Shown here: positions 1 to 11,008 of the stretch, one piece after another
Layout of the letters: every line of letters starts with the position of its first letter
How positions within the stretch are numbered: position 1 is the stretch's first letter
Virus genome (UHGV): UHGV-1724027
Reading direction: 5' to 3' (one strand)
DNA length: 13,124 nucleotides
From: a virus
The notes under the pieces: generated by a model
The model's input: only the letters and a program-made list of their open reading frames with translations
Told to the model about the DNA's origin: nothing
Database searches by the model: none
Position numbers and translations under genes: made by a program

Positions 1-518
1 TACATGTAGTTTATTTCAGGAGTAGGCTTTTTAGTTGGTAAAAAAGCAAATTTTGAGTTGGAATAATAATGACGTCCATTTAAATGAACTGTATATTCAT
101 CCATAGTTTTATCAACAGGATATCCTCCAAGTGATTTTTCACTTATTGTTGAAGGTAATCTTCCTTCGTATGCTATAATATCAACAAAATAGTTTAAGTT
201 TTTAGGGCGGAAAGAATACACCGCACTAAAGTCTGCCTCAGATGATATATGAACTATCTGGAGTTGTTCCAGGGCGACAGATTCAAAGCGTGCAGTTCTT
301 TCCTTTTCAATAATTTCACTGTATGTTTCATACTTTGATTGCTTATAGTACTCAAAGAAACTATCTCCCCTATACCAAACAATCGCCATCATAAATAAAA
401 GAATTACGACAGCTACCCGGGAAGCAAGAACCTTCCCAGTAGCGTTATCTTTGAACAAGCGATCTAGAACACCAAACAGAATATCAGAGGGCGAAAATGA
501 TATTCTAGGTGCTGCCAT
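1..518 (-). CDS. t: Holin T (gene t), 5' portion only; the ORF runs off the left edge of the window (about 172 of ~218 codons present)
   Basis: Minus-strand translation from ATG (complement of 516..518) reads MAAPRISFSPSDILFGVLDRLFKDNATGKVLASRVAVVILLFMMAIVWYRGDSFFEYYKQSKYETYSEIIEKERTARFE..., which matches my recollection of T4 holin T. A strong RBS (AAGGAGGG) sits 5 nt upstream. It is absent from the supplied ORF track because it is truncated by the window edge. Position directly downstream of gene 38 matches T-even gene order. Confidence 0.9.
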   Translation of the reverse strand, partial: MAAPRISFSPSDILFGVLDRLFKDNATGKVLASRVAVVILLFMMAIVWYRGDSFFEYYKQSKYETYSEIIEKERTARFESVALEQLQIVHISSEADFSAVYSFRPKNLNYFVDIIAYEGRLPSTISEKSLGGYPVDKTMDEYTVHLNGRHYYSNSKFAFLPTKKPTPEINYM

Positions 519-548: not shown

Positions 549-1343
549 TTATACTCTTGCACCATATATTGTACCAACTTTAGTCCAAGTTGGAGCATTA
601 CCAGTAACAGCTTTACCAGCCGCACCGGGGGAGTTCGAATAGCCGCTCAATCTAACCGCATCCTTACCTCGTTCACCAACGTTACCGCCATCGCCGCCGT
701 AGTATCCAACGCCGGAATACATTTTTCCGCCTGCACCTGGAGATGTTAAAGATGCCGATGATCCCGGGGCTGCTGCGCCATTATTGCCACCAGCTCCGAA
801 AGGACGTCCACCGCCACCGCCAGAAACGTATTTACCTCCCCATCCATTATCAGTTGATTGGGCGCCACCACCGCCACCACCGCCAGCAATCGCTCCATTA
901 TTAGTGATTCGTAGACGAGTACCTATACCATTGTTAATTGCAGTACCGCCAGCTTGCCCTGCCTGGTTTCCCGCTTGCGCGCCACGACCACCACGACCAT
1001 ATACTGTTACGCCACCATTTATAATAAGCGTTACATAAGCATTAGTTAATGAACTAGGAAAATCTAAGCAAGGTTGCCCAGCTGATGAAGAAACAATATT
1101 TCCTGTAATAGTAACAACAACAGGAGTACTACCTTGAGATTTGAGATAATTTATTAGCGTGTCTTTATTATATGAATTACTAGCGCCAATACTGTAATAT
1201 ACTTCTTTAGATTGCCCAGCCATTGAACTCATCCAACCGGGAACTGAAACACGAACTGCTCTCATCGCAGCATCCATCCAACGTTGTCCAGTTTCATTCA
1301 CGGCAGATTCGCCAATCCAGCCAGGAACACCTACAATTGCCAT
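549..1343 (-). CDS. 38: gp38 receptor-recognising adhesin of the T2/T6 type (264 aa), with glycine-rich motifs alternating with short variable segments
   Basis: The N-terminus MAIVGVPGWIGESAVNETGQRWM resembles the conserved gp37-attachment domain of T2-like gp38 as I recall it. Residues ~109-227 are poly-Gly blocks (GRGGRG, GGGGGGG, GGGGGRPFGAGG, GGDGG) separated by short non-Gly inserts. ATG at complement of 1341..1343 with an AAGGA RBS. At 264 aa it fits T2-type gp38 (~260 aa), not the 183-aa T4 gp38 assembly chaperone. Confidence 0.9.
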   Translation of the reverse strand: MAIVGVPGWIGESAVNETGQRWMDAAMRAVRVSVPGWMSSMAGQSKEVYYSIGASNSYNKDTLINYLKSQGSTPVVVTITGNIVSSSAGQPCLDFPSSLTNAYVTLIINGGVTVYGRGGRGAQAGNQAGQAGGTAINNGIGTRLRITNNGAIAGGGGGGGAQSTDNGWGGKYVSGGGGGRPFGAGGNNGAAAPGSSASLTSPGAGGKMYSGVGYYGGDGGNVGERGKDAVRLSGYSNSPGAAGKAVTGNAPTWTKVGTIYGARV

Positions 1344-1354
1344 TAAAAATCCTT

Positions 1355-1372
1355 AGAGGGCCGAAGCCCTCT
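1355..1372 (-). other. Stable RNA hairpin with UUCG tetraloop in the 37-38 intergenic spacer (mRNA stem AGAGGGC-UUCG-GCCCUCU)
   Basis: Perfect 7-bp inverted repeat around a TTCG loop, read directly from the sequence. It lies immediately 3' of the gene 37 stop and is followed by AAGGA (the gene 38 RBS) and then TTTTT. Because the U-run is not adjacent to the stem, this is more likely an mRNA-stability or translation-modulating structure than a strong terminator. Confidence 0.55.
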
Positions 1373-1373
1373 T

Positions 1374-4300
1374 TTACATAAGTTTAGATTCAAGTTCTTT
1401 TACACGAGAAGAAAGTGTTTTCACAGCTTCAACCAGAAGAGCAATCTGGGATTGAGAAGAAACAGTGAGTATTTTATTACCCTTAATATCTTCAACTTCA
1501 CGAACTGCTTCTGGTAAAACATCTTGCAGTGTTTGAGCCACAATACCCGCTTCAGTTTGAACAATTTCACCGCCTATATAGTCAGCTTTATCATAGATTA
1601 AACCATCAAGCTGTTCAACCTTTTCAAGAGCATTTTCAATAGGTCTGAAATTAGATTTCAAACGAATATCAGAACGAATATAAACGTTTGGGGCATTTAT
1701 ATTCATGTCAGAATAAGTGTCACCCGTTTGGAATCTCATTCGGCGTGCGGCATTAGTAATGATATCAAGAACTCCGTCAGCGGATTGTTTAATTCCGGTA
1801 TCATTATCACCAAATGCTATACTATTTCCACCAAGTGCGTTATTGATATTAATACCAAATGAATTTGTTTGATTAATACCAGCTACAGTAGCATTATTTA
1901 CTACAAAGCGGTTAGCTCCACCTGGAGTCTTTTCAAAGTAAGCAATATAGTTAGTGTCATCGGCAATTTCAATGCGGTTACCGCGAGAAGCATCACCAGC
2001 ATGAAATATTCTCATATTTCTCGGGTTCGCACCGGACTTATCAAAGTTAATAGAACCATTATCTTTGACGTTTATGCTATTATAGAATAAAGCAGCGCTG
2101 CGAACAGCTATGCCATTATTCATCATCACTTCGCCGGTTGTTAAGTTAATTGCGAAAGGACGTTTACTATTCCAATCACCATTAACAGTTGCTGCGCCAT
2201 CGGTGGCATTTTTATCTGTAAACAGAATATAAAAACTGCCGCCGTCATTTCGTAACATTGTAGCCACAGAACCAGTTTTATCGGCATTGCTTCTGATACG
2301 AATACCGGTTTGGCTATTAATAGCTATTTCAGAATCGGCTTCATAACGCTTCACACCGTTAGGGGTAGGAGCCAAGTTGTTCAGAACACTAGCAACCTGT
2401 CCTTGAATAGCCGTCTCAGGAAGTTCAACCGCAGTTTCTGTTGCACCCGGTTGGTCCGTTGCAAATATCTGATTAATGGTAGCATTAGGAGTAGCATAAT
2501 AAGAAACTGCTAACGCCTGAGCATAAGTACCAACGTTTACATAGATGTCATAAACATCGCCTGATGTATTGACCGTTGCAACATTCTTAATACCCTGACC
2601 GATATCCATCGACCAAACAACAGCGTTAATACCTTTCGGGTTATTGTTCGAAGTTCTTAAAACAATTTTCGAAGTAACGCATTGGTGTGGGGTGTTGACA
2701 TTATATCCATTACCACCAGCAATTTCGAATGTGACGGTTGAAGTGGATTGTGGCATTGTTACAGTGGCTAATTTATACCAACCGCCAGTACCTGAATAAG
2801 AAACCATTCGGGTATTGACTTTACGGTCTAGTGTCAAGTTCAAGTTAGCAAAGTTAGGTAATGAACCGCCCGTGATATTACCGTCAGTACCAATACGAAC
2901 CGTACCAGCGCCTAATTTACCAGGGGAAATAAAATCACCGGTTCTATTGAATTCCCACCCGAAGTCCTTAATTAAAGGGCCCGTCGAATCATTATCACCA
3001 CCTTCATGATAATGAACTCTAAAGTTACCACCATTAATTAGAGTTCCTAAAGAATAACAGCTATTTCCTTGAACATATCGTTGTTTCAAAATAGGAACAT
3101 ATGTACTAGTATCAGTTCTATCAATATTCATATAGAACGGCGCACGTACATTTTCATTATTTTGGGAAGCAAAAGAACCCGCTCCGGCCGGACGTGCTCT
3201 ATCAGTACATTCTGCATCAATGTATGCCGACTGACCTATCTGCATTCTGAAATTAGGAGAAATGCGACTATTACTAGTAACAACAACAAGTTTGTTATCA
3301 TTGTCCACTGTAATCATATTACCGCCAGCACCATCGTCACCTAACGTGACAGAATGACGCATTTGCACCATACCATTATTAAGGCTGATACTTAATGGGC
3401 GAAGATTACTTATTCCGCCAGATTCACCTGCATCTTTAGGAGTTGGAATAATATGCAATGCCGCCTCTGAACGACGGAAAATAGCACCGTATTCAGCATT
3501 CCAAATTCTTAATGCATCTGCCGTTCCACCGAATTTAGCCTGACCATTTACAGATAATCCATTATTTGCAACTAAACTTGATTCAGTAACAATAGAACCA
3601 GATGATGTAATACCACCAGAAGTTAATAAACCACCATTAACTCGAAATTGAATAGGTCCGACGGTAGAACCTGATCCGGGAGCAACTCGTTGAGAATAAA
3701 AATGGTAACCTTGTCCATCTGATACTTCAAAAACTGTTTCACGGGAACGATCGCCAGAAGCGTTAAATGAATTACCCCATGCTTTAACAGTTACATAGCT
3801 TTTATTCTGACCAGCACGAGTACCGCCTTCCCACAAAATTTGCTTAGTGCCATCAATTGTAGTAGTTGGAGCGAATGTTAGCCCAGCAGTAGAATTATTA
3901 GCTGCTAAATATATGCCGTTATATATTGAAAGCTGCTTAACAGATGTAATACCGCCATCAGCATAAAACATTACATTATTAGAGCCAGTTACCAATTTCA
4001 AAATACCCGGGTTAACTTCCATGCCTTCTTGAGTATTAATATTAGTTTTTCCTTTACCACGGAAATAGTGGTTCATTTTTCCGCCAGAATTATATCCAAT
4101 ATGGGTTTGACCGTCTCCAGCAGTGTTTTCATCAGCCTGTGTTTGAACCGATAAAAACGCGGCGTTCGTTCCAGGCATATTCCATGTTCCGCCTTGGTCT
4201 TCTGAACGTCCAAATAATGCTTTACGAGTACTACGGAAACTGTCAGGAGTAATAGACGCGATAGAAAGACCATTAGCAACTAAATCATATACACCAGATC

Positions 4301-5285
4301 TTTTATATGATACACCAGTTGCGGCATCTCCAATGACTATATAGCATTCACCCATTGCTCCAGTGGAGCCGTAATTATTAATGTTTTCATCTGTTGTAAT
4401 TGTACCAATTGCGAGTGAGCGTCGCAACACTAAAGACCCATCATTGCGAAGGCCCATTTGTTTATTAACGGCTGTATTACCGGTCCACCAAGACAGTTCA
4501 TCACTTTTTCCGGTTTGTGCAGAAGCTAATTCATGATAAATCGTACCACCAGATTTTGCACGGAATTTACGAAGGTAATTAATTCCGTTTGTTTCACCAG
4601 TTCCAGGATAAACATATTGAACTAATGACTGCGAATCGTATTGTCCAAATGCTTTTGTGTCAAATACTATAGTCTTTGTATTGATTTGCGGAGCAGAAAC
4701 TACCCCAGTAGCCGAATTAATATTACCAGAAGCAGAAATATTTCCATCTGTTACTGTCAAACTTCCTGTATCAACAACAAATCCACCATCTCTACGAAAT
4801 GTCCAGTATTTTGAAGTTCCCGATTCGTTGATATAATGAATTTTAAAACTACCTTCGTTTACTAACGTACCAACAGAAAAAGTTCCATCTTTATAGCGTT
4901 GTTTAATCAGCGGATGATATTCTGAAACGGAAGTAGTTGAGCTCAAATCTGTAAAGACAGGAGCTTTATTTAGGTGTTGATTTGCCCATGCACCATTACC
5001 AGCTGTTTTAGGTAAAAATTCAATATATTTTCCTGCATAAACAAACTGATTTCCATTGAGATTATATGTACCGTTCTGTAAATAATCTCCAGTTTGTGTG
5101 ATATTTCCACTGATATTACCGCCAGCGGAAATGCTTAAATCAATGATATTTCCTGAATCATCTTTAGTAAAAATTGTTCTATCTTTTAAGTTTATAGCCA
5201 ATTCGCCTTCGGCTAATACTGAAGCAGCAGGACGTGCACCTGCGGTTTTGCTTCTTTTAAATTGTATTTGTTTTAAAGTAGCCAT
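1374..5285 (-). CDS. 37: gp37, long tail fiber distal subunit (1303 aa); T4-like N-terminal and central parts, with a C-terminal self-cleaving chaperone module
   Basis: N-terminus [48 protein letters not shown] matches my recollection of T4 gp37. The internal segment [31 protein letters not shown] parallels a segment of gp34. The C-terminus carries the motif S-D-I-R-L-K. ATG at complement of 5283..5285 preceded by a GAGGA RBS, 8 nt after the gene 36 stop. Confidence 0.95.
1377..1670 (-). other. Predicted C-terminal intramolecular chaperone / autoproteolytic module of gp37 (peptidase S74-like), C-terminal 98 residues; predicted cleavage between Ser1205 and Asp1206
   Basis: The motif ...NVYIRS|[34 protein letters not shown]... 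is seen in the translation. It resembles the S-D-x-R-L-K signature that I associate with self-cleaving chaperone domains of phage fibers and tailspikes (K1F endosialidase, T5 pb1). The exact cleavage site is an inference. Confidence 0.6.
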
Positions 5286-5293
5286 AAGTCCTC

Positions 5294-5953
5294 TTAATAA
5301 TAGCCGAAATCTTGAACAGAATCCTTAATTACGATTTGGTCAAATCGCGGAACGTGTGAAGGTTGAGATGCAGGATTCTGTGAGAAAAAGTTTGGTGCGG
5401 TTAAGTTTCCAGTCATAGTGTCTCCTTTACGGAAAACTCTAGAATCCGCATTTGCCGTAACAGTATTTATTGCTCCATCAACATAGTCCTTTCTAGTAAG
5501 GTCATTCGCTGCTATAGGAGCAGCTGCATCACTTCTTACTTGACCTGCTGCCGACACAACACCTTTTGTACTAATATCACCATTACGTGTATTAATTACC
5601 ACAGTTCGGGCTGCTGAACCTTGCGATGATTTAAAACCAATACCATACCACGAAACAATATCCATATTTGTAGTATCATACGTGGCATTATCGCCAGGAC
5701 CAGCAAAAATACCATTGTCACCTGATCCTGCGCCAGGAACAGTCATTCCTTTATTAAAAATTACTTTATTTAAATATGTACCACCATTAGCTTTAGAAAC
5801 GAAATCGTTATCAACAGCTTGTGGTTTATTATATTCTGAATATATTTTAAATGATTTATAGAGTACATCGTCACCGGCTGGATTCAATGGAAAATTTCCT
5901 TGATGCCAAATGACAGAGCCTCCAGTTGTTGAACCTACTTTTAAATCAGCCAT
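5294..5953 (-). CDS. 36: gp36, long tail fiber distal connector (hinge) protein (219 aa)
   Basis: Size and position between genes 35 and 37 match T4 gp36 (221 aa). It is directly preceded by a late promoter box and an RBS, and its stop is 8 nt from the gene 37 start. Confidence 0.9.
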
Positions 5954-6015: not shown

Positions 6016-7131
6016 TTATACTTCTCTAAATTCTTGCCCAAACACTTTACCAGTTTTAGACGATGCTTGTGTAGGAAGTACCATTATATCCGGAGGTGAA
6101 GCAGATTCACAGATATAATTAACACGAATACCATTGACGCCAAATTCAGCAGGTTTTGAAATACCGCCGTTTCTTGATACTTCAGAAAAGCTTAAATTTC
6201 TCATGCCACCTTGGCCAGCTTGTGCAGTTCTTTGTGCATATATCGTAAATCCTACAGCGTTTTCTGGAACAACTACATAATCTTCCTTTAATTCCCATGA
6301 CCCAGCTTGTCCAGTAAATTCAGCCTGTGTTGAAGAAATATATCCGTTAGATGCATTATAAAATCGAATGGATATATTCGTAGTTCCAAGAGCAAGTAAA
6401 TCAGCATCAGCATATAACTGAGCTTTAAGATAAAGAACATCACCAGGAATTAAATTATAATCAGATAATTTACTTATAGCAGCTGAAGTTGGTAGACGCG
6501 CAATTTCGTTATTAGTTCCACCAACCGCTGACATAAATTGCTCAACGCTTTCATACGTTCTTCTTGGAAACCCGGTAGCTCCGACATCTTCTAAACTGTC
6601 AAATACAACATCTAAAATAGTTTGATAATCATCTGTGCTTTTTCTATTACTTAATTTAACATGCTCTAATGCGATAGCTCTTTTAGAAGAAGTATAAAAA
6701 GCAGCATATGATACGTCGAATCTTGACAATATAGAATCAGATGGAAAAGCAGACGTTCCGGCGGTTCTTAACCAAGATACTACTTCAGGAGGAAAATTAA
6801 CCTTTCCGTTAGTTAATATAGCAACAATTCGATTATTCGTCAAAGAATTCATAAAACTAACAAAAGCAGCTGATGTAGTATCATTTGAAGTCGAAAAAGC
6901 ATATGACTTACTATCAACTAATGCTCCGGTGGAAGGGTCAAAAACTCTTAAATGAAGGCCTGCGCTAAATGTTTGACTTCCTACAGGATTATCCTGAAAT
7001 TTAACGTATGGTCCTGCAGTAGAAAGCGGGCAAGAACCCGCTATGCTTATTTTATATCTTACTGAATTGCTTTCCGATAAAAACGGCGTTTGGACATATC
7101 CTTGTCCAAACTCTGCCATAAATTTTTCCAT
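6016..7131 (-). CDS. 35: gp35, long tail fiber hinge protein joining proximal and distal half-fibers (371 aa)
   Basis: Size (371 aa against 372 in T4) and position between 34 and 36. An AAGAGG RBS lies in the 8-nt spacer after the gene 34 stop. Confidence 0.9.
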   Translation of the reverse strand: MEKFMAEFGQGYVQTPFLSESNSVRYKISIAGSCPLSTAGPYVKFQDNPVGSQTFSAGLHLRVFDPSTGALVDSKSYAFSTSNDTTSAAFVSFMNSLTNNRIVAILTNGKVNFPPEVVSWLRTAGTSAFPSDSILSRFDVSYAAFYTSSKRAIALEHVKLSNRKSTDDYQTILDVVFDSLEDVGATGFPRRTYESVEQFMSAVGGTNNEIARLPTSAAISKLSDYNLIPGDVLYLKAQLYADADLLALGTTNISIRFYNASNGYISSTQAEFTGQAGSWELKEDYVVVPENAVGFTIYAQRTAQAGQGGMRNLSFSEVSRNGGISKPAEFGVNGIRVNYICESASPPDIMVLPTQASSKTGKVFGQEFREV

Positions 7132-7139
7132 AATACCTC

Positions 7140-9785
7140 TTATTCAACCCATTCAAATTTAACCGTTTTATTCACTGGGTCAGGAATAATGCGAACATTA
7201 CCAATTCGCAAGAAATCACGAATAGTAAGATTCCCCATTGTAGCATTATCAGATGGTAAAGCACCGATATCAGATGGTTGAGGAGGGTTACCTCCGTCAA
7301 ATACCTGAACAAAACTTGACCAAGAGTTTTTGGTTTTCTGCCATGTACGTGTCCAGCGAGTGGTACGCGCTTCTGGCGTCGTTGGATAAGTAATCCAATC
7401 TTGGTAAAGCGAATCAAGTGTGTTACCAAACTGAGTCAGTGTACCAGGAGATTTAACTTCTTCGCCACGTTCTAAGTATGGAAGCCCAGTCACTTCATTA
7501 GTTTTTTCAACCATTTTAAAATAACCCGGGAACTGGTTATAAGTGGCTGAATCGTTAATATCGATTGACCAGAATCCTACAGTATCAGATGTTGGCGCAC
7601 GGGTGTATAAATCAGATGTTTTAGTACCCTGAGAACGAATTCTCGAGTTAACAGTTAAACCACCTGAATTTATAGTAGCACCTTTGGCAATGATTAAGCC
7701 TTCACCAATCGTAACCTGACCAGATGCATTATTAATAGCTAAAGGACGTAATCCATTAAATCCGCCAGTCTGATCACCAGATGCAGTAAGCATAAAATAG
7801 GTATTAGCAGCATCATTGCGAATAAAGAATCCGTAATCACCACTAATTGCTCTAAATGCATTTGCAGACTTGCTAATGAATTCACCATTGGCTGTAACTG
7901 AACGACCGAATGTTGCAACACCATTCACATTCATCAAACCGGAAGCATTAATATTTATTGGCATCACAGTACCATTAATGCTAAACGCTATATTACCGTC
8001 TTTATTACGTTGAGAATAAAAGTGATTAGACGTTTCATCACCAACTTCAAATACAGTAGAACGTGTTGTATCTGAACCGCCGCCAAACTGATTTCCCCAA
8101 ACTCTGATAGTCATCGTCTGTGCTGGGTTAGTTCCAGTTTGAGGTCCTTTCTCAAAAATCAGACGAGTTGCAGTTCCAGTATTAGAAATAGTTAATGTGC
8201 TGTTTGCCGAAACTGATCCGCCAAACGTAGCAGTACTAGATGATACAAGAGGGGCACTCAGATTCGTTTGTTGGGTTAAGGTTAGTGAACCATTAACCGT
8301 CTGTGCAATATCCCTACGAATGAACTGAGATGAATCTAGACCATCCAATAAATTACTATCTACAGCTTTTGCTTTTAATGGCAAATAATTTGCTAATACA
8401 CGGTTTAATTCATATGGTGATACTGCATAGCTATTTTTCTCGTATAGCTCTAAGTCCTGCGTAGAACCAGCTGTATCATTACCAACAAATGTAATTGAAC
8501 CAGATGAAGTTTTAACAAAGCCTCTTATCGCAGTAGTAGCTGCCCAAGTAGGTTCACTCTGCACAATCCATTTTAAATTTTTTGGAGATACAGCAGTATT
8601 TGCTGATGTTCCAGTCACAGTTTCAGACTGAGTTGCAACTTTAATAACACCTTCTTGCGATTCGGTAGATTTAGTACCTAAAAGCTTTTTAGGAGTTATT
8701 AAAACATTATCTAATGTTCCTGCAGCAGCTTCAACCTGTGTAGCTACACGAAGTGTACCACGCTGTGTCTCATTTGCTTCAAGAATATTAAGGGTATAAT
8801 GGTCCCAGAGAGTTCCTGATTCAACTAATCCAGATAGAGCAACAACAGAAGTACGATCAGTACTATTAAATCTGGTTTTAATTTTTAATGGTGTAGAGAT
8901 ACGAGTATCGTCGACGCCTGCGTCGAATTCAACTTGTGTAGCAATTTCAGCTATACCACTTAAACTTTCAGTTGCTCTACGGTCATTTAAAGTTTTAGGA
9001 GTGACTGCACGAGTATAATCAGTTCCTGTATTAACTTCACTTTGCGTAGCAATTTCAATTAAACCAATTCTTCCATCGGTTGATGTCTTTTTATGTAACG
9101 TTTCTGGCGTTACAACAGCATTTGCCCATCCTTCCTGACTTTGTCCAGCAATTACTTCACTTTCAACTGCTAAAATTACTGCACCTTGCTGCGTTGGAGT
9201 AGCTTTATACTGATCCAAAGCTTTAGGTGAAACAACTAAATTATTAGTGTTTTTATTATAAACATTCGTACCATTTAATTCACGGCTAGAAGCTGGAGTA
9301 GCACCTGCAGTAGATACAAAAGTTACAATACCAGATAATGATTCAGAACCTTGACGAGCTTGAAGCTTTTTAGGAGTGATGATTGTAGTGTCATCAGTAC
9401 CTGTATTAGTTTCCTGCTGCGTAGCAATTTCTGCGACACCTCTGCGAGTTTCTGTAGCAGTTCTTTCATTCAGCTTTTTAGGAGTGATGATAAGGTCATC
9501 AGCAAAAGAGAATGTGGTGTTCTGATTCACTTGAGCAGTAGTTGCTATTCTTGCGATACCTCTGCGAGTTTCAGTAGCAGTACGGTTAGCTAATGTTTCT
9601 GGAGTAATTGCTAATTCTTTTTGTGGAGAATTTTCTAAATCGACGTTAGCTTGAGCTTGTGTAGCTAAAGCAATTACGCCTAATCTTGCTCTAGTAGAAT
9701 CATTTAAAGAATCTACTCTTTCGACAGTTGGAACGTTTTGCTGTACAACCCAATATTTTCCATCAGAATCTTCAATATAAGCAAG
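7140..9785 (-). CDS. 34: gp34, long tail fiber proximal subunit: C-terminal ~881 codons, in a different frame from the N-terminal part because of a 1-nt frameshift
   Basis: The supplied ORF 7140..9530 starts at a GTG only because there is no in-frame start codon further upstream. I translated this frame by hand upstream to ~9785 and it stays open, reading LAYIEDSDGKYWVVQQNVPTVERVDSLNDSTRARLGVIALATQAQANVDLENSPQKELAITPETLANRTATETRRGIARIATTAQVNQNTTFSFADD..., a plausible continuation of gp34. The C-terminus ...KTVKFEWVE matches my recollection of T4 gp34. Confidence 0.85.
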   Translation of the reverse strand, partial: LAYIEDSDGKYWVVQQNVPTVERVDSLNDSTRARLGVIALATQAQANVDLENSPQKELAITPETLANRTATETRRGIARIATTAQVNQNTTFSFADDLIITPKKLNERTATETRRGVAEIATQQETNTGTDDTTIITPKKLQARQGSESLSGIVTFVSTAGATPASSRELNGTNVYNKNTNNLVVSPKALDQYKATPTQQGAVILAVESEVIAGQSQEGWANAVVTPETLHKKTSTDGRIGLIEIATQSEVNTGTDYTRAVTPKTLNDRRATESLSGIAEIATQVEFDAGVDDTRISTPLKIKTRFNSTDRTSVVALSGLVESGTLWDHYTLNILEANETQRGTLRVATQVEAAAGTLDNVLITPKKLLGTKSTESQEGVIKVATQSETVTGTSANTAVSPKNLKWIVQSEPTWAATTAIRGFVKTSSGSITFVGNDTAGSTQDLELYEKNSYAVSPYELNRVLANYLPLKAKAVDSNLLDGLDSSQFIRRDIAQTVNGSLTLTQQTNLSAPLVSSSTATFGGSVSANSTLTISNTGTATRLIFEKGPQTGTNPAQTMTIRVWGNQFGGGSDTTRSTVFEVGDETSNHFYSQRNKDGNIAFSINGTVMPININASGLMNVNGVATFGRSVTANGEFISKSANAFRAISGDYGFFIRNDAANTYFMLTASGDQTGGFNGLRPLAINNASGQVTIGEGLIIAKGATINSGGLTVNSRIRSQGTKTSDLYTRAPTSDTVGFWSIDINDSATYNQFPGYFKMVEKTNEVTGLPYLERGEEVKSPGTLTQFGNTLDSLYQDWITYPTTPEARTTRWTRTWQKTKNSWSSFVQVFDGGNPPQPSDIGALPSDNATMGNLTIRDFLRIGNVRIIPDPVNKTVKFEWVE
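8700..9700 (-). repeat. Imperfect tandem repeats within gene 34, encoding repeated (A/I)-E-I-A-T-Q...T-G-T-D...I-T-P-K-K-L units
   Basis: Near-identical DNA copies are visible: TGCGACACCTCTGCGAGTTTCTGTAGCAGT (9432..9461) and TGCGATACCTCTGCGAGTTTCAGTAGCAGT (9552..9581), 120 bp apart. AGCTTTTTAGGAGTGATGAT occurs at 9364..9383 and 9472..9491. A motif of the form TG(C/T)GTAGCAATTTC recurs near 8937, 9046 and 9414. The protein shows at least six matching peptide repeats. Confidence 0.7.
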
Positions 9786-11008
9786 TTGTAAACTGGAACA
9801 TAATTAGTTTCACCGTTAAAAACTAATTCTTGGACTGTAACCCATTCAGCTTCAGGCGGATATTCTGAGCGTTTTGGGAATTGCAGTAATTGAACTGAAG
9901 AAGCAATTTTATCTTCACCGGCAGCTTTGATTTTAACTGTTTGTCCTTTTCTCATGTAATTCATGGAAATTTTAACAGTATCACCAACAGAAATATCAGT
10001 AGGAAGCTGAAGCTCAATTGTTTGGGTTGTTCCGTTATTCGCACCAAATACCATAACTTCTTCGTTTGGACGAATATTAGAATTAGTCGTTATAATGCGT
10101 AAACGCGCTTTACTATCCCCGTCAAACAATCTCCACAATTTCTCATTATCATCAAACATCAAGAAACCGTCAATCGATGTACGGCCTTCAATGGAATGAG
10201 TTCCAACTTCTTGTACTGAAGTCGTTTCATCGTATGTAGTAACAATTGTATGATAAAGTGGATTTAGTTTATCTAAATCGACGAAATTAATAATATCTCC
10301 ATGATTAGCAAATCTCGGAAGTTTAATATTTATCGGTGCAGCAGAAGTAAATCTACGCACGATAAAATCATTAGATTGCGCTTGATAAGTATTCGCTGGT
10401 GTTACAACTACAGCTTCTCTACTATAATCAGCTACATACATTTGCCACAGACGATTACTAAAAATTAAAACTAGCTGTGACTTTGGATGAGTCATTAGTA
10501 CTGAACGTACCTGTTCACCTCTAAAGTTTACAATACTTTGCACTGGAGCTACAATTAAAACTTGGTTAACTCCAGGTTTTCCTCCAATATCTTGGAGAAC
10601 GATAGTATCACCGTCAATTGGGGTAGATGGTAAAGTAAATGTAATATCATTACCAGCTGCAGTGTTAACCGAAATAGCTTCACCGGATTTTAATTGATAT
10701 GAACCAGATGAGACTGTAATCCAGTTAGCATCGGTACGTAATGCTCTCCAGCGTCCGCTATTAAAAGCTCCTGCCGGTTTTGGAATATCATTTATAGCAG
10801 CCCAAAAGCGGTTATCATAAATGATTACAAAATCTTTTAAATATCCACGAGTTGGATCGTATTGTTGAACTGTGTTTTCTTGAATTAAGTAATCAACGTT
10901 AACACCGTCAGTTCCTACGGTACGATCAGCTAAAGCTACGTTGATTATTTTATCGCCACCTGCGTCCAGACCATCTTCTGCTCTGAACTTTCTTTTAATC
11001 TCGGCCAT
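9713..11008 (-). CDS. 34: gp34, long tail fiber proximal subunit: N-terminal fragment (431-aa ORF; first ~406 aa native, last 25 aa out-of-frame read-through to a TAG)
   Basis: N-terminus MAEIKRKFRAEDGLDAGGDKIINVALADRTVGTDGVNVDYLIQENTVQQYDPTRGYLKDF... matches my recollection of T4 gp34. After ...ETNYVPV the translation becomes low-complexity (YNLLILKILMENIGLYSKTFQLSKE*) while the -1 frame continues the fibre sequence. 406 + 2 + 881 = 1289 codons, the known length of T4 gp34. Confidence 0.85.
   Translation of the reverse strand: MAEIKRKFRAEDGLDAGGDKIINVALADRTVGTDGVNVDYLIQENTVQQYDPTRGYLKDFVIIYDNRFWAAINDIPKPAGAFNSGRWRALRTDANWITVSSGSYQLKSGEAISVNTAAGNDITFTLPSTPIDGDTIVLQDIGGKPGVNQVLIVAPVQSIVNFRGEQVRSVLMTHPKSQLVLIFSNRLWQMYVADYSREAVVVTPANTYQAQSNDFIVRRFTSAAPINIKLPRFANHGDIINFVDLDKLNPLYHTIVTTYDETTSVQEVGTHSIEGRTSIDGFLMFDDNEKLWRLFDGDSKARLRIITTNSNIRPNEEVMVFGANNGTTQTIELQLPTDISVGDTVKISMNYMRKGQTVKIKAAGEDKIASSVQLLQFPKRSEYPPEAEWVTVQELVFNGETNYVPVYNLLILKILMENIGLYSKTFQLSKE

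Follow-up and report, generated by a model that had tools for sequence, protein, structure and literature searches.

The question raised by this locus, a minus-strand reading frame at 549..1343 in a 13,124-nt stretch of phage DNA (UHGV virus genome UHGV-1724027; hereafter the window), is whether its glycine-rich product is the receptor-recognizing protein at the tip of a T2-type long tail fibre, and, if so, which receptor it recognizes and how the gene was assembled. The locus is very probably gene 38 of a Tequatrovirus (T2-type), a recombinational mosaic whose product has OmpC as its likeliest receptor.

Pfam profiles covered nearly the whole protein: PF21721 (Gp38_N) matched residues 1-42 (E 8.3e-18, 64.6 bits vs a cut-off of 25) and PF05268 (GP38) matched residues 47-264 (E 3.2e-72, 243.3 bits vs a cut-off of 25). 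Among PDB sequences, gp38 matched the receptor-binding domain of PP01 (9V85, E 3.9e-55) and chain D of the S16 structure (6F45, E 7.2e-46). The gene lies in a minus-strand long-tail-fibre operon with the order gp34-gp35-gp36-gp37-gp38-t (Table 1), so that the assignment as a gp38 adhesin made in the first-pass annotation is borne out by sequence, by gene order and by the fold described below.

Table 1. Features of the gene 38 locus and its neighbours in the window; aa numbers refer to gp38 unless another protein is named.
Feature	Position	Strand	Basis
Gene t (holin), 5' part, directly downstream of gene 38	1..518	-	translation MAAPRISFSPSDILFG...; holin annotated there in relatives
Gene 38, T2-type long-tail-fibre tip adhesin (receptor-recognizing protein)	549..1343	-	ORF, 264 aa + stop
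N-terminal attachment domain, aa 1-42	1218..1343	-	Gp38_N Pfam match
N-terminal part of beta-helix domain, aa 43-108	1020..1217	-	AF2 strands E48-108, pLDDT 95-97
Glycine-rich receptor-binding core, aa 109-240, predicted polyglycine-II sandwich + loops A-E	624..1019	-	composition, entropy, PP01 superposition
GRM1, GRGGRG, aa 116-121	981..998	-	G116, R117, G118, G119, G121 invariant in 44 homologues
Loop A, start of HVS1, AQAGNQAGQA, aa 122-131	951..980	-	high-entropy 123-128; aligns with PP01 loop-A W119-I124
GRM2, GGGGGGG, aa 154-160	864..884	-	G155-G159 invariant
Loop B/HVS, AQSTDNGWGGKYV, aa 161-173	825..863	-	entropy segment 162-173; PP01 loop-B mapping
GRM3, GGGGGRPFGAGG, aa 175-186	786..821	-	G176, G178, G179, P181, G183 invariant
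Loop C/HVS, NNGAAAPGSS, aa 187-196	756..785	-	entropy segment 187-195; PP01 loop-C mapping
Loop D/HVS, GKMYSGVGYY, aa 206-215	699..728	-	entropy segment 205-216; PP01 mapping
GRM4, GGDGGNVGERG, aa 216-226	666..698	-	G217, G219, G220, G223, G226 invariant
Loop E/HVS, KDAVRLSGYSNSP, aa 227-239	627..665	-	entropy segment 227-238; PP01 mapping
GRM5 + conserved C-terminal strands, GAAGKAVTGNAPTWTKVGTIYGARV, aa 240-264	552..626	-	conserved columns
GRM5, GAAGKAVTG, aa 240-248		-	invariant Gly columns in 243-248
UUCG-tetraloop hairpin between gp37 stop codon and gp38 ribosome-binding site	1355..1372	-	fold -13.4 kcal/mol, z -2.4
Gene 37, distal long-tail-fibre subunit, 1303 aa, carrier of gp38	1374..5285	-	ORF
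gp37 C-terminal intramolecular-chaperone domain, gp37 aa 1205-1262	1500..1673	-	Peptidase_S74 E 1.4e-13
gp36	5294..5953	-	
gp35	6016..7131	-	
gp34, two ORFs	9713..11008, 7140..9530	-	

The GC-rich, polyglycine stretch that had first drawn attention to the locus, at 663..1019, is real and encodes gp38 residues 109-227, and all the peptides quoted from it were found in the translation (GRGGRG, GGGGGGG, GGGGGRPFGAGG, GGDGG, AQSTDNGWGGKYV, NNGAAAPGSSASLTSP, KMYSGVGYY and NVGERGKDAVRLSGYSNSP). Since the last of the quoted inserts ends only at residue 239 (coordinate 627), about 36 nt past position 663, the core is better bounded at 624..1019 (aa 109-240). The GC content was 0.552 in 663..1019 vs 0.378 across the whole window; the highest value for a 357-nt interval (0.563) was found at start 642, and intervals of that length reached a GC of at least 0.50 only at starts 484-755, about 2% of all positions. 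Glycine made up 37% of the residues encoded in the stretch (44/119) vs 11% in the remainder of gp38. Because the GC-rich codons there were those of glycine (GC 0.79; 0.78 for Gly, Ala, Pro and Arg together), while the other codons had a GC of 0.26 and the third-position GC (GC3) was low (0.30, vs 0.21-0.25 in the adjoining coding sequence), the GC excess is entirely compositional. Two plus-strand ORFs in the same stretch (743..904 and 784..1038) were discarded as genes, their Pro-rich translations being mirror images of the glycine codons.

An alternation of five Gly-rich motifs (GRM) with hypervariable segments (HVS) in the C-terminal half of gp38 was reported in Drexler et al. 1989 and in Trojet et al. 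2011, and a later structure showed it to be a polyglycine-II sandwich from which loops protrude (Dunne et al. 2018, as cited in PMC12892980). The protein encoded at 549..1343 has this GRM/HVS alternation. In an alignment of 44 sequences, the invariant columns were almost all glycine and fell at residues 116-121, 155-159, 176-183, 217-226 and 243-248, with G177, R180, F182 and G186 of GRM3 kept in 90% or more of the sequences; the high-entropy segments were located at 123-128, 162-173, 187-195, 205-216 and 227-238. The non-glycine inserts named beforehand thus fall on the family's high-entropy segments and on the receptor loops A-E seen in the crystal structure of PP01, and one further such segment, 123-128, had not been set apart. 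A 9-nt tandem repeat lies within GRM2 (863-885, period 9, TRF).

An AlphaFold2 model of gp38, obtained from 44 homologues, had a mean pLDDT of 87.7. Foldseek aligned it with PP01 gp38 (9v85_C) at a target-normalised TM of 0.95, an rmsd of 1.1 Å, 54% identity and E 1.8e-26, and with S16 gp38 (6f45_D) at a TM of 0.77-0.81 and E 1.8e-21; in the PDB, no fold besides these two gp38 proteins scored better than E 0.9. The model therefore superposes on the S16 structure, the comparison that had been proposed from the sequence, and it has the predicted attachment domain, beta-helix and polyglycine-II sandwich seen in S16 (6F45) and PP01 (9V85). [quoted passage not shown] On this reading, GRM1-5 would fold into a polyglycine-II helix sandwich acting as a rigid scaffold, with the five non-glycine loops A-E projecting from its distal face, where they would bind an outer-membrane protein at its extracellular loops; such binding would constitute the first, reversible, host-range-determining step of adsorption.

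Two readings in which the locus would not encode a tip adhesin were weighed against these results. The closest GenBank records (SA21RB, ime09 and T6) carry the T4 chaperone name 'distal long tail fiber assembly catalyst', in keeping with a T4-type product that would act only as a chaperone for gp37 assembly and be absent from the virion, gp37 itself binding the receptor. This is highly improbable, since both adhesin Pfam families match the 549..1343 protein, whose predicted fold equals that of the fibre-tip adhesins of S16 and PP01, whereas T4-type gp38 shows no sequence relationship with the T2-type family according to the account of Trojet et al. 2011; moreover, the C-terminal chaperone domain of gp37 is of the cleavable T2/S16 type and not a T4-type needle tip. 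The T4-type role was accordingly rejected on family and fold, the GenBank label being a legacy T4 name, and the gene should be annotated as 'long tail fibre adhesin gp38, predicted OmpC-binding' in place of 'assembly catalyst'. As for the GC-rich island, it is the sole stretch of the window with a GC of at least 0.50 and it contains short 6-9-nt tandem repeats, as might be seen in horizontally acquired foreign DNA or in a non-coding repeat element; but the repeats of the region are merely runs of glycine codons (15-23 nt), its GC3 (0.30) and the GC of its codons other than Gly, Ala, Pro and Arg (0.26) are typical of the phage, and the frame is open and conserved, with a dN/dS of 0.05. A foreign or repeat-element origin, refuted by codon-position composition and purifying selection, has a vanishingly small probability.

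With the product taken as a tip adhesin, its allele group was delimited in a phage collection of 50,697 records, which was searched for the full-length receptor-binding cassette. Only 11 records, representing eight distinct phages, carried the cassette over its full length: SA21RB, SP21535, ESh26, KRT47, ime09, Sf22, CrRp10 and ECP2301. The hosts of these carriers are Escherichia, Shigella and Citrobacter, genera in which OmpC is present. The number of amino acid differences from gp38 was two for SA21RB (R28K and S195A), three for SP21535, five for ESh26, six for both ime09 and KRT47, seven for Sf22 and eight for CrRp10. SA21RB (UIU27920.1; 264 aa) was 99.2% identical in amino acids and 98.5% in nucleotides, and the Shigella phage SP21535 (264 aa) was 98.0% identical in nucleotides; in both, the five loops were the same save for S195A, and the gene likewise lay between gp37 and t. 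Sf22 and KRT47 encode proteins of the same length, with the same GRMs and 97-98% amino acid identity, and diverge by about 7-8% in nucleotides, almost all of it synonymous.

Within this group, a receptor has been defined experimentally only for Sf22 and KRT47: both require OmpC, and their adsorption is blocked when loops 5 and 7 of ompC are mutated (Tinney et al. 2022, according to PMC12892980 and PMC11654681). For ime09, CrRp10 and SA21RB no receptor data were found in the literature, and the receptors of SA21RB and SP21535 were unreported in the papers that could be searched. The receptor-binding domain of the 549..1343 protein was 97-98% identical to those of Sf22 and KRT47, with loop identities of 90% (A), 100% (B), 80% (C), 100% (D) and 92% (E), and four differences were located in or beside loops A, C and E (Q130E, A191K, S195A and S233N). 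At residue 195, all seven close cultured relatives compared had alanine in place of serine.

The other characterised adhesins were more distant. Next in closeness came PP01, an E. coli O157 phage whose gp38 (PDB 9V85) binds the OmpC of O157 at loops 5 and 7 and whose receptor-binding domain was 62% identical (54% when structurally aligned); its loops B-E were 38-60% identical and of the same lengths, except for a 2-residue difference ahead of loop D, whereas its loop A was unrelated (20%) and its N-terminal domain was of a different, T6/M1 type (32% identity). Of eight PP01 residues linked to contact with OmpC or LPS, five are kept (K168, Y169, G208 and Y230, implicated by cross-linking or mutagenesis, plus Y209, corresponding to K171, Y172, G213, Y235 and Y214), and three are changed (Y159 to Q162, Q161 to T164 and A228 to S233). 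Since PP01 is only 62% identical, these mismatches do not exclude OmpC. In PP01, however, Y159 is essential and the polar substitution A228D abolished infectivity, and because Q162 and S233 occupy these two positions the binding mode may differ in detail from that of PP01. The gp38 of the Salmonella phage S16 (6F45 chain D), which also recognizes OmpC, has the same three-domain architecture and GRM/HVS alternation, but its receptor-binding domain was only 44% identical and its loops 0-20%. The adhesins of T2, T6, M1 and the related K3/Ox2 group, directed at FadL/OmpF, Tsx and OmpA, belong to the same family, with five GRMs and the same gene position, and the N-terminal 108 aa of T2 were 74% identical; in contrast, loops B-E were 0-31% identical and loop A up to 40% identical in the T2/T6/M1 group, that is, essentially unrelated, so that receptors other than those of this group are to be expected. 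The limits of 31% for loops B-E and 40% for loop A held when adhesins for Tsx (T6 and JK38), OmpA (M1), FadL/OmpF (T2) and OmpF (fPS-2) were considered together.

Since the receptor is predictable from the phylogeny of gp38 taken without its N-terminus (PMC12032242; bioRxiv 2026.04.02.716166), OmpC is the best-supported receptor. On these comparisons, the OmpC porin of Escherichia, Shigella or Citrobacter is most likely the receptor, because the allele belongs to the small ime09/Sf22/KRT47/SA21RB group, and nearby LPS sugars probably add to the binding. Of the earlier proposal that the inserts set receptor specificity, the role of the loops stands, loops A-E being close to those of the OmpC-dependent Sf22 and KRT47, while the specificity itself is an ordinary one: the first-pass annotation had held that inserts identical to those of a phage with a defined receptor would make it a known type, and here they are equal or almost equal to such inserts. 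The adhesin type and the specificity type are thus already known, and the interpretation is a textbook one with nothing novel in it. Its importance beyond annotation is small, consisting of one further natural allele and one further gp37/gp38 pairing in a well-mapped family, which serves receptor prediction and the engineering of phage host range.

If the residues Q130, A191, S195 and S233 retargeted a true gp38 adhesin relative to Sf22 and KRT47, towards another porin, an LPS or O-antigen sugar or a distinct class of OmpC variants, then the OmpC assignment would be wrong or incomplete. A single HVS substitution (Q206L) suffices to switch a gp38 receptor from OmpF to OmpW (bioRxiv 2026.04.02.716166), and in host-range mutants of Ox2 the recognition of a protein receptor was extended to a carbohydrate one (Drexler et al. 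1989/1991, as cited in PMC12892980). Loops C and E or their immediate surroundings hold three of the four differences, and S233 is the counterpart of A228, a contact residue of PP01, but loops B and D are identical to those of KRT47 and Sf22 and all the substitutions are conservative or small (A/K, S/A, S/N and Q/E). The isolation hosts also differ, E. coli O156:H25 for SA21RB and Shigella for KRT47 and Sf22; yet the same cassette is carried by phages of all three host genera, each with OmpC, and a dN/dS of about 0.05 argues for a group held under one constraint. Retargeting is, on balance, unlikely, and recognition of OmpC is the preferred reading. It is doubtful, too, that A191, S195 and S233 retune the SA21RB-like sub-allele to another variant of OmpC loops 5 and 7 or to another receptor; this would be a natural case in which one to three loop substitutions shift the host range while the rest of the scaffold stays frozen. 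The four loop differences from Sf22 and KRT47 represent a small natural mutagenesis set for the recognition of OmpC variants.

Comparison of the Gly/loop part with KRT47, Sf22 and ime09 yielded a dS of about 0.37, a dN of about 0.018 and a dN/dS of about 0.05. Judging from these alignments, the 'hypervariable' loops are strongly conserved inside the allele group, their variability being found between alleles and not within them. Metagenomic members of the clade at a greater distance (P0002-P0006, 78-91% identity) differed mostly at loops B, D and E.

Searches for related genes by tblastn with the full gp38 returned mostly matches to aa 1-109 only, and DNA searches and explicit alignments were used because the low-complexity filter of tblastn masks the Gly-rich half. 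Nucleotides 1-305 of the gene were 100% identical to slur07 and REP1, phages that carry unrelated cassettes; this identity collapsed at about residue 102, just before GRM1, and resumed at about nt 735, in GRM5. SA21RB, in contrast, was only 91-93% identical in nucleotides at gene nt 46-110, where the gene equals slur07 and REP1. Exact nucleotide runs of 30-48 nt in common with slur07, REP1 and JK38 were located in 552..626, which on this basis serves the cassette as its 3' homology arm. Since nt 1-305 and the sequence from about nt 735 onward match phages with other cassettes, the cassette (about nt 306-734) appears to have been exchanged as a block via its conserved flanks. When the cassette itself was compared with six divergent alleles, a single exact run of at least 14 nt was shared, a 14-nt run with T2. 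The Shigella phage SH-1 was KRT47-like up to the run of seven glycines (aa 160) and unrelated thereafter, a pattern that clearly places its breakpoint at or just after the GRM2 seven-glycine motif.

Recombination at the glycine motifs has long been published (Tetart et al. 1996/1998; Trojet et al. 2011), and the suggestion that the glycine-codon repeats promote shuffling is supported: the gene is a mosaic and the SH-1 breakpoint falls at or after a glycine motif, but most of the exchange seen here ran through the conserved flanks of the cassette. As the main sites of recombination, the internal glycine motifs were only partly borne out: one clear breakpoint of this kind was found, in SH-1, and exact runs of at least 14 nt inside the cassette were limited to the one with T2. 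The cassette would thus be swapped between phages via its conserved flanks and, less often, via the internal glycine motifs. The distal part of gp37 had its best DNA matches in phages Solly and TB37, which were closer than SA21RB; the gp38 of Solly is of the Tsx type (REP1-like), and TB37 matched gene 38 over just 52% of its length.

The exact gp38 protein was present in three public metagenome contigs, and S195 was found only in metagenomes, in those three contigs. A 90%-identity cluster grouped gp38 with the proteins of ime09, KRT47, Sf22, CrRp10, ESh26 and SA21RB. One contig (L019) was 100% identical to the window across 9.8 kb, and in another (L017) the identical gp38 protein lay behind a different gp37 (1267 aa).

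Around the gene, a hairpin separates gp37 from the gp38 ribosome-binding site (Table 1); in the K3 record, the matching sequence, where gene 37 reaches its 3' end, is annotated with a stem-loop or potential terminator. An apparent gp34 pseudogene was traced to a scaffold gap. The genes rnh and dsbA and a late-transcription coactivator gene were located on the plus strand of the window.

The same 264-aa gp38 was found alongside two different gp37 proteins, one of 1,267 aa in L017, a metagenome contig encoding exactly this adhesin, and one of 1,303 aa in the window (L017 6167..10795 vs window 549..5285). The distal gp37 of the window was nearest to those of phages Solly and TB37, of which the former carries a Tsx-type gp38 and the latter matches gene 38 of the window over no more than about half. 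One tip with two shafts, together with these gp38 differences, shows that shaft (gp37) and tip (gp38) reassort freely.

Exchange was also detected inside gp38, in the natural chimera of Shigella phage SH-1 (L015). Its sequence was like that of Shigella phage KRT47, which belongs to the same allele group as the window, through the GGGGGGG motif (aa 154-160), with a handful of nucleotide mismatches; after this motif, loops B-E followed another allele, resembling the gp38 sequence P0016. In the window, the DNA coding for the poly-Gly runs at 863..885 and 808..826 consists of short units repeated in tandem (CGCCACCAC x2.6, CCACCG x2.5), and an imperfect direct repeat of 19 nt, its copies 63 nt apart, was also present in the poly-Gly coding DNA. 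Slippage could occur at these repeats, and the length of the Gly run varied from G7 to G9 across gp38 family members.

Features of the tail-fibre genes and their coordinates
Feature	Location	Strand	Remarks
Peptidase_S74 (endosialidase-type intramolecular chaperone) domain	1500..1673	(-)	near gp37 C-terminus
UUCG-tetraloop hairpin, AGAGGGC-UUCG-GCCCUCU	1355..1372	(-)	between gp37 stop codon and gp38 Shine-Dalgarno
gp34, proximal long-tail-fibre subunit	9713..11008 + 7140..9530	(-)	apparently two ORFs, junction near 9792
SH-1 gp38	L015 201..992		natural chimera

The Peptidase_S74 domain implies that gp37 is cleaved autocatalytically before gp38 attaches, as is the case in T2 and S16. The intergenic hairpin is stable (free energy -13.4 kcal/mol, z -2.4) and may act on the g37-g38 transcript, either stabilising or attenuating it; in the matched stretch, where gene 37 has its 3' end, the K3 GenBank record marks a stem-loop or potential terminator.

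At the gp34 junction the window reads TTT, one base fewer than the TTTT of Citrobacter phage PhiZZ6. Since an ENA scaffold from the same phage population (L018) has a run of 10 N at exactly this position, while TTTT and an unbroken gp34 of 1,290 aa are found in L017, a related contig, the frameshift is almost certainly an artefact of assembly or of a scaffold join.
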